Shown here piece by piece: positions 38,384 to 38,808 of a DNA stretch of 64,000 bases. The DNA comes from Octopus vulgaris (lineage: Eukaryota). Positions within the stretch are counted from its first letter, which is position 1. Every line of letters begins with the position of its first letter. The notes under the pieces were generated by a model. That model searched no databases, had not been told where the DNA came from, and saw only the letters and a program-made list of their open reading frames with translations. The stretch spans positions 96,720,001 to 96,784,000 of the forward strand of contig OX597823.1 in NCBI GenBank assembly GCA_951406725.2. The letters are read 5' to 3'. A program made the translations under genes and the position numbers.

Positions 38384-38552
38384 ATCTATCTATCTATCTA
38401 TCTATCTATCTATCTATCTATCTATCTATCTATATATATATATATATATATATATATATATATATATATATATATATATATAAAGGAAATGAAGAAAATG
38501 CTGACAAAATAATTTAAGTAATTTAAGTAATTTAATTAGGTGAAGTTCTTTT

Positions 38553-38606
38553 AAAAATATGGAACGCTTCACGAATTTGCATGTCATCCTTGCGCAGGGA
38601 CCATGC
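38553..38606 (-). pseudogene. RNU6: U6 snRNA 3' fragment (inverted arm)
   Basis: Reverse complement GCATGGTCCCTGCGCAAGGATGACATGCAAATTCGTGAAGCGTTCCATATTTTT; two substitutions versus canonical U6. Confidence 0.9.
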
Positions 38607-38647
38607 GCAAGGATGACACGCAAATTCGTGAAGCGTTCCATATTTTT
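38604..38647 (+). pseudogene. RNU6: U6 snRNA 3' fragment (sense arm of a fold-back insert spanning 38482-38760)
   Basis: TGCGCAAGGATGACACGCAAATTCGTGAAGCGTTCCATATTTTT matches the conserved 3' end of metazoan U6 as I recall it. Confidence 0.9.
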
Positions 38648-38808
38648 AAAAGAACTTTCACCTAATTAAATTACTTAAATTACTTAAATTATTTTGTCAG
38701 CATTTTCTTCATTTCCTTTTTATATATCACAACTCGTGTTCCACATCTCCTTTTTTTAAATATATATATATATATATATATATATATATATATATATATA
38801 TATATATA

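Follow-up and report, generated by a model that had tools for sequence, protein, structure and literature searches.

U6 snRNA joined to Penelope-like elements at predicted hammerhead cleavage sites in the Octopus vulgaris genome

A fold-back insert with U6 at its apex

The window analysed here is a stretch of 64,000 nucleotides of Octopus vulgaris DNA (assembly GCA_951406725.2, contig OX597823.1, positions 96,720,001 to 96,784,000 of the forward strand). It contains a 5′-truncated, inverted-repeat copy of a Penelope-like element (PLE), lying inside a (TA)n tract and carrying the 3′ half of U6 snRNA at its head (Table 1). An initial annotation, made from the letters alone, described inverted arms of about 115 bp (38482–38596 and 38604–38719) around a GGGACCA loop, with (TA)n on both sides, and this description holds: the arms align over 116 columns with one mismatch and one single-base gap. 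The 3′ half of U6, stopping at five Ts, was also correctly placed at the apex, as Rfam model RF00026 matches both strands of the insert (52.5 and 47.3 bits, against a gathering cut-off of 44) and five Ts close U6 on each arm. The longer U6 piece belongs to the tail-less arm and reads on the minus strand, and the shorter reads on the plus strand; the two overlap by 3 bases of microhomology. Because the minus-strand piece covers the loop, the loop is assigned to the U6 of the left, tail-less arm. A tail of 41 nt, a count that includes TA microhomology, is present exclusively on the right arm. The focal U6 sequence comprises nt 54–107 only and has no U6 promoter; the product is probably a dead retrocopy, whose value lies in the record of RNA chemistry that it preserves.

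Table 1. Features of the focal insert and its surroundings (window coordinates)
Feature	Position	Strand	Comment
Left (TA)n target tract	38431..38481	.	(CTAT)n before it, from 38383
Tail-less inverted PLE family A pLTR segment, predicted hammerhead cut to tail start	38482..38552	-	same layout in U6-free copies
U6 snRNA nt 54–107, five-T end, contains loop 38597–38603	38553..38606	-	Rfam RF00026; 52/54 identical to a U6 gene of the same genome
U6 snRNA nt 64–107, five-T end, 3-nt microhomology overlap with left piece	38604..38647	+	44/44 identical to a U6 gene of the same genome
U6/PLE junction, at the bond after GUA where the family A hammerhead is predicted to cut, zero added bases	38647..38648	+	
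Family A pLTR segment downstream of predicted cut	38648..38719	+	72/72 identical to L018; 70/71 identical to ORF-bearing L082, with a 1-nt gap
41-nt PLE tail, one arm	38720..38760	+	30–40 bp one-sided tail known from PLEs
Right (TA)n target tract	38760..38809	.	

Several other features of the window are of a related kind. A second tailed fold-back, of another family, occupies 38810–39214 with 147-bp arms and a 7-nt loop, in the same TA tract as the focal insert and in the opposite orientation. Fold-back inserts next to TA tracts are also found at 4642–4739, 20154–20411, 32873–33145 and 52730–52872, and these are probably other PLE remnants. The ending of a T-run plus AAA noted earlier at 20411 and 52872 is present at both, although the arms of the 52872 fold-back are only ~8 bp long. 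Minimal hammerhead motifs of families J and K lie at 11779, 19426, 34165 and 38292; the descriptor introduced below matches those at 11779, 34165 and 38292, the copy at 19426 being degenerate. The sequence following U6 had been likened to that following the hammerheads at 19426 and 38292. This resemblance is superficial, because those hammerheads belong to a different family, but the conclusion drawn from it, that U6 is joined at a predicted hammerhead site, was right. A weak Rfam tRNA match (31.2 bits) on the minus strand at 15804–15875 is probably a SINE head.

The parent element and its hammerhead motif

The genome searched is a 2.8-Gb assembly, in which the sequence after U6 proved to be repetitive, with 1,731 candidates at first look, the 40 scored ones at 97–100%. 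A 20-mer pattern for the tail region (38648–38760) found at least 1,544 exact arms genome-wide, and the tail, first described as unique, is thus highly multicopy. Most of the 19 U6-free family A loci that we inspected lie in (TA)n as inverted repeats, one arm of which bears the tail. At L082, inverted pLTRs flank an open frame of 765 aa, which in this copy has a frame shift near the C-terminus. The frame matches Pfam RVT_1 above the cut-off (E 2.9e-7) and GIY-YIG slightly below it (22.0 versus 22.6 bits), and has the motifs DKG (at 161), YLDD and HYIG, a CX4CxxC linker (CNRPNCGIC at 653) and CCHH residues (CSGC/H/H at 697–736). It therefore combines, as in C-terminal EN+ PLEs, an RT followed by GIY-YIG in a single ORF with the CX2-5CxxC linker and CCHH of the Neptune/Nematis type; tandem or inverted pLTRs with a one-sided tail of 30–40 bp have been reported for PLEs (PMC8557442, PMC11167929), and L082 and the 41-nt focal tail conform to that layout. 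Hydra clade PLEs have no CCHH and carry CxCX5C and DKT instead (PMC8557442). By the motif criteria of that study, family A is, judged from its predicted protein, a C-terminal EN+ PLE of Neptune/Nematis type and not of the Hydra type, and the Penelope-like parentage first suggested, now seen in the RT, linker and GIY-YIG motifs of the L082 frame, stands. The ORF was examined in family A; the other families described below are called PLE-like from their motif, tail, inversion and target.

Neptune/Nematis-type C-terminal EN+ PLEs with minimal hammerheads have been described previously (Cervera and de la Pena, 2014, PMC4209133; Craig et al., 2021, PMC8557442; Frangieh et al., 2024, PMC11167929). 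Family A has in common with them the RT, the CX2-5CxxC linker, GIY-YIG and CCHH, inverted pLTRs, the tail and TA targeting, as well as a type I minimal hammerhead with a palindromic helix III and the U3-A8 covariation, a pair already reported in PLE hammerheads (PMC4209133). The one-sided tail also agrees with the two RT start sites observed in vitro for an anole PLE (PMC11167929).

In U6-free family A copies, the minimal hammerhead (HHR) motif stops exactly where the five Ts of U6 attach, and in the focal chimera these Ts run straight into the exact bases after the predicted cut. The native motif is a type I minimal hammerhead with a 2-bp helix I, a core UUGAUAA (U3-A8 pair) and a 4-bp helix II, followed by GCAA replacing GAAA, a palindromic CCGG, UA and then the cut. 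The 3-8 pair, helix II, palindromic helix III, NUH site and helix I of a minimal type I hammerhead are thus all present, the oddities being a C at position 13 and the short helix I. It had been proposed that 38648–38760 would be multicopy and would lie, in U6-free copies, directly after a hammerhead of the form CUGANGA...GAAA; the copy number and the position are as proposed, but the motif is a variant with U3/A8 and GCAA. Judged by eye, the motif is kept in ~90 of the first 100 family A arms listed. When two family A motifs are cofolded, they pair between molecules through ACCGGU, and this modelled pairing of the palindrome is what a dimer model would require. A paper reportedly treats PLE hammerhead variants that cleave as dimers. 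Atypical as it is in its GCAA and 2-bp helix I, the family A motif is predicted from its sequence to self-cleave at the junction bond.

The same holds in other families that have acquired U6. A descriptor, which was composed after the motifs had been seen and has a chance rate of 52 and 6 per 199,882 positions in two Markov backgrounds, predicts cleavage at the junction bond in native copies from each of the 10 families with exact joints (arms matched, out of those examined: A 21/32, B 11/15, C 3/4, D 1/8, E 2/8, F 5/8, J 2/4, D2 1/9, E3 2/6, H 1/3). The motifs of these families differ in sequence, whilst the 3-8 core pair stays C-G, U-A, A-U or G-C; that of family C is a fully canonical hammerhead with a 6-bp helix I. 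The core variants GCAA, A3-U8 and G3-C8 were not found in the available text of PMC4209133, PMC8557442 or PMC11167929. The coincidence of the joints with the descriptor-placed cut in U6-free copies makes hammerhead cleavage at the junction site very likely.

Joints between U6 and hammerhead elements across the genome

The U6 3′ end, searched as an exact 16-mer, matches the genome 322 times, and the 319 matches listed are mostly U6 fused to SINE-like 5′ ends, with some genes. Those that looked, on inspection by eye, like neither a SINE fusion nor a gene were fetched, some LINE- or SINE-internal ones being left out, and to these were added seven loci from a search for inverted U6 pairs and one chance find (L209). 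Defining a chimera as U6 joined to a hammerhead-bearing, TA-flanked family, with the predicted site read from U6-free copies of each family, we count 20 U6/HHR-element chimeras in 11 families, the focal locus and 19 others. In 17 of the 20 (the focal locus and 16 others, in 10 families) the joint is the predicted cut, with zero extra bases. These exact joints comprise two in family A (the focal locus and L024), four in B (L050, L074, L054 and L145), two in C (L075 and L080), one in D (L076), two in E (L077 and L057), one each in F (L060), J (L155) and D2 (L147), two in E3 (L156 and L157) and one in H (L151), whose partner has no close U6-free copy and whose predicted site was taken from a related subfamily. 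Even if each event had a 2% chance of striking the bond, 17 such joints on one bond across 10 families would have a binomial p of ~1e-26. In L146 the joint lies 0–2 nt from the predicted cut, and two off-site chimeras show microhomology (L154, ~45 nt downstream; L209, 8–13 nt).

The chimeras derive from two U6 gene types and vary in 5′ truncation. U6 is found on both arms in all 14 that are inverted, and the remaining six have no inverted arm. Most of them show the features of RtcB-type chimeras, namely an intact U6 3′ end with about five Ts, in sense orientation and without added bases. At the exact family A junction U6 occurs at two loci only, the focal one and L024, in different subfamilies. 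L050 and L074 have a common odd rearrangement of U6 and may represent one event.

Some candidates fell outside this set. L152 was dropped before the count, its partner having no upstream hammerhead; L058, L161 and L163 were left out as their partners could not be tied to a hammerhead family; L150, L153 and L164 are chance matches of the U6 16-mer; and L171, considered as a foreign RNA at the cut, proved to be a duplication of the target with microhomology of 2 nt. When 20 oddly joined loci were scanned with Rfam, the matches were only U6 and microsatellite-driven miRNA ones under the cut-off. Four sequencing runs guessed to be RNA, covered as assembled contigs and queried with the family A pLTR, gave no joints or ends and, among the loose ends listed, none of U6, a negative that carries no information either way. 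Elsewhere, near full-length U6 lies directly in (TA)n without a partner in L158, L159 and L160, two copies facing each other over the TA tract in L158. Head-to-tail U6-U6 dimers joined at the T-run are found in L068 and L178, and in L063 U6 is joined to a head that we take to resemble 5S rRNA.

The U6–SINE fusions provide a comparison within the same genome. Their partners are full-length SINE-like repeats of four or five families, joined by the 5′ end, and other U6 3′ ends are fused at a fixed point of a short common tail repeat. T-runs range from 3 to 9 and spacers from 1 to 10 bases, with 29 different spacers among the 47 fusions classed. A U6 end of five Ts is present in 18/20 PLE chimeras versus 15/57 U6–SINE fusions (Fisher p 7e-7), the latter number coming from part of the matches and the T counts being blurred by T-rich SINE leaders. 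Part of these fusions could be U6-headed SINEs. The U6–SINE chimera set of this genome is unusually rich.

U1 was considered in parallel. Among the 33 matches listed, judged by eye and found with a pattern that left out matches with A at the last position, no U1 3′ end is joined to an HHR element. As U1 is also rare in SINE fusions, this control cannot separate ligation from an RT jump. U1 retrocopy-like loci on C1, C2, C11, C25, C26 and C30 keep ~20 nt of the gene 3′ flank and end in (ATT)n, which suggests retroposition of pre-U1.

U6 is not the only RNA end found at the cut. A tandem low-copy repeat of ~358 nt with a canonical hammerhead (U3-G8), present at L215, L216, L277 and L278, is by its layout a predicted retrozyme. 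In 5/16 matches the end that its predicted cut would leave abuts the family A cut site, representing three events (L087, L218 and L276) in two subfamilies. Ribozyme self-ligation is an unlikely source of these joints, because helix I of the retrozyme cannot pair with the family A product. Both foreign donors identified at cut sites, U6 and the retrozyme end, are predicted to end in a cyclic phosphate, with the qualification that our donor patterns would miss poly(A) ends and donors with a G three bases before the joint.

Further breakpoints at the site were sought among 46 family A arms without native bases just upstream of it and 59 family B rows without native pre-site bases, of which 20 were fetched. 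L167–L169 are U6-free fold-backs with their apex at the cut site and 1–3 extra bases, which are absent from the U6 joints. In L172 (family A) one arm starts at the cut site and the other runs past it, and in L289–L292 (family B) one arm starts at the cut and the other passes the hammerhead; this asymmetry suggests twin priming on one cleaved and one uncleaved template. In two family B rows the sequence joined to the cut site seems to come from further downstream in the same element. The 59 family B rows also include 2 SINE insertions and ~14 slips between short repeats, showing that DNA-level events too are able to strike the cut site. Sequence that apparently follows the tail is joined back to the cut site in L294, L296 (in tandem) and L287, the outcome expected from a circular RNA template if the sequence indeed follows the tail; a family A subfamily (L088–L092, 5 of the first 100 arms) has a ~200-nt insert precisely on the predicted cleavage bond, which may be a piece of RNA that was ligated in at the break; and in L302 the whole hammerhead core between the helix I strands is missing from both arms.

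Origin of the joints and their meaning

We consider it probable that the focal insert was made by hammerhead cleavage in vivo, RtcB-type ligation of U6 and PLE retroposition. The minimal hammerhead would cleave the element RNA, probably as a dimer via the palindromic stem III, leaving a 5′-OH fragment of ~113 nt plus downstream RNA that would retain both RT start sites. Mature U6, with its five U and 2′,3′-cyclic phosphate, would then be ligated to the 5′-OH of the element by an RtcB-type ligase. The PLE RT/GIY-YIG protein would prime on both cut strands of the (TA)n target, starting once from the end of the tail and once from its beginning, and the two cDNAs, or one self-folding cDNA, would be joined through the 3-nt U6 microhomology. 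Priming at these two positions followed by microhomology joining would yield an inverted repeat in which a single arm has the tail. The ligation step itself we likewise regard as likely. The 3′ terminus of mature U6 is known to be five U bearing a cyclic phosphate, which RtcB requires along with a 5′-OH (PMC6789731); the ends predicted for U6 and for the hammerhead product would suit the enzyme exactly. One ligated template read twice would simply explain U6 on both arms of the 14 inverted chimeras, although a jump followed by fold-back would do so too.

That second route is the alternative to be weighed most carefully. The hammerhead would again cut, but the PLE RT, on reaching the cleaved 5′ end, would jump end-to-end to the 3′ terminus of U6, and the cDNA would fold back with U6 on both arms. 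The junction position expected is the same as under ligation, the U6-free copies demonstrate that the RT gets to the cut end, and the abundant U6–SINE fusions, with their variable T-runs and spacers, look jump-like. SINE RNAs presumably start with a triphosphate, and an RtcB-free route may therefore act on U6 in this genome, in which case U6 may simply be a good jump acceptor. Template switching is moreover the classical account of U6/LINE chimeras (PMC4476161, PMC11838501), and the anole PLE study had no reads at the cut (PMC11167929). Against a jump, the 17 exact joints have no added bases, though U6-free run-offs carry 1–3, the number of Ts is fixed at five, and the two foreign donors are both predicted to be cyclic-phosphate ended. 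On balance, an RT jump is possible but rather unlikely.

Two further explanations fare much worse. The first, raised in the initial annotation, is that a U6-headed non-autonomous element arose once and spread in the manner of a SINE. Identical junctions do recur within a family, and the private rearrangement of L050 and L074 allows for limited secondary copying, but just two family A loci, of different subfamilies, have the junction, which is not the picture of one amplified joint. The 11 partner families and two U6 gene types, together with the variable 5′ truncation, do not support a single such element, and the promoter elements found upstream of true U6 genes are missing from the chimeras. 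This reading is largely refuted, and we hold it to be very improbable. The second is an origin at the DNA level, in which a PLE recombined with a U6 gene or retrocopy or was joined to one through microhomology, or an origin by read-through into the flank of a true U6 gene. The microhomology in L154 and L209 and the insertions and slips at the family B site speak for it, but most families have no sequence common to the U6 end and the native pre-cut bases. The U6 genes at L069, which holds an array of seven copies, and at L149 have upstream octamer/TATA elements and 3′ flanks unlike 38648–38760, and the insert is thus not the 3′ flank of a true U6 gene, the finding that was to have overturned the original proposal. 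For the exact joints the DNA-level origin is refuted by their recurrence on a single bond in 10 families and is scarcely credible overall, though it may hold for L154 and L209. The two gene types just mentioned differ in the 5′ stem-loop, the copies of the array being spaced at ~1.1 kb.

Fold-backs are a familiar long-read artefact, but an assembly or sequencing error is a most improbable source of the palindrome, as substitutions and a gap distinguish the focal arms, only one of them has the tail, as described for PLEs, and the same design recurs in 14 U6 chimeras and in the majority of the U6-free copies that we inspected, whilst six chimeras have no inverted arm.

Chimeric pseudogenes of U6 and LINE-1 have been attributed to RtcB ligation (Moldovan et al., 2019, PMC6789731). 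The octopus joints resemble them in having the U6 3′ end and T-run in sense to a retroelement 3′ part, and in the cyclic phosphate and 5′-OH chemistry. In the LINE-1 case, however, junctions are scattered and the nuclease giving the 5′-OH is unknown (PMC6789731), whereas in the octopus U6 is joined to a PLE, at a fixed position given by the element's own predicted ribozyme cut, and the inserted copies form inverted repeats within (TA)n that have a tail on one side. U6 chimeras with L2, RTE, CR1 and SINEs in non-human vertebrates were ascribed to template switching (Doucet et al., 2015, PMC4476161), and U6 chimeras with these partners and with L1 have thus far been described (PMC4476161, PMC11838501, PMC2104539). 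The octopus SINE and LINE fusions fit the pattern of Doucet et al., with U6, often 5′-truncated, on a stringent element 3′ end (PMC4476161). The available text of that paper mentions neither Penelope, invertebrates nor ribozymes, and that of PMC11838501 neither Penelope nor ribozymes; a repeat annotation of an octopus tabulates U and U-L1 SINE classes, its available part being silent on snRNA, chimeras and ribozymes (PMC13282606). In the open-access literature searched, subscription papers lying outside its coverage, neither a U6/PLE chimera nor a joint of U6 with a ribozyme cut end came to light, in agreement with the initial annotation, which knew of none. The U6/PLE joints are real and recurrent; what is new is the PLE partner and the position at a ribozyme cut, U6/LINE chimeras being already known.

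For PLE hammerheads, the defining paper states that evidence of cleavage in vivo is lacking, and in the anole element the HHR site coincided with the start or end of 0 RNA-seq reads, cleavage being unnecessary for insertion in vitro (PMC11167929). Where these earlier PLE papers, as far as available, lack in vivo evidence or reads at the cut, the genomic joints mark it here. Non-LTR retrozymes (Cervera and de la Pena, 2020, PMC7229834; bioRxiv 10.64898/2026.07.22.740005) offer another parallel, as their hammerhead products are ligated by RtcB in vitro, which circularises the RNA (PMC7229834), and a dependence on PLEs has been proposed. The ligation known from retrozymes is intramolecular, giving circles, whereas here a retrozyme end is apparently joined to the cut end of another element. 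Ligation of PLE hammerhead products into circles has been proposed in a review (PMC6765202), and another cites U6/L1 as the sole pro-transposon ligation (PMC13247085). With somewhat less assurance than for the focal insert, we lean towards the general view that minimal hammerheads of PLEs, including those with non-canonical cores, cleave in vivo and that the host tRNA ligase joins their 5′-OH products to any nearby cyclic-phosphate RNA (U6, retrozyme monomers or fragments of the element itself).

The origin of U6/retroelement chimeras, by ligation or template switch, is disputed because the source of the 5′-OH in L1 is unknown. Here the 5′-OH end is predicted from sequence, and five-T PLE joints can be set against ragged SINE joints within one genome, which makes the question directly testable. 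The junctions on the predicted bond in ten families provide independent genomic evidence for hammerhead cutting of PLEs in vivo and flag unusual core variants worth assaying, and the same scan is applicable to any PLE-rich genome. If the proposed mechanism is true, the octopus genome would hold a fossil map of ribozyme cuts at nucleotide resolution, and RNA ligation would be a route for the swapping of 5′ modules in PLEs.
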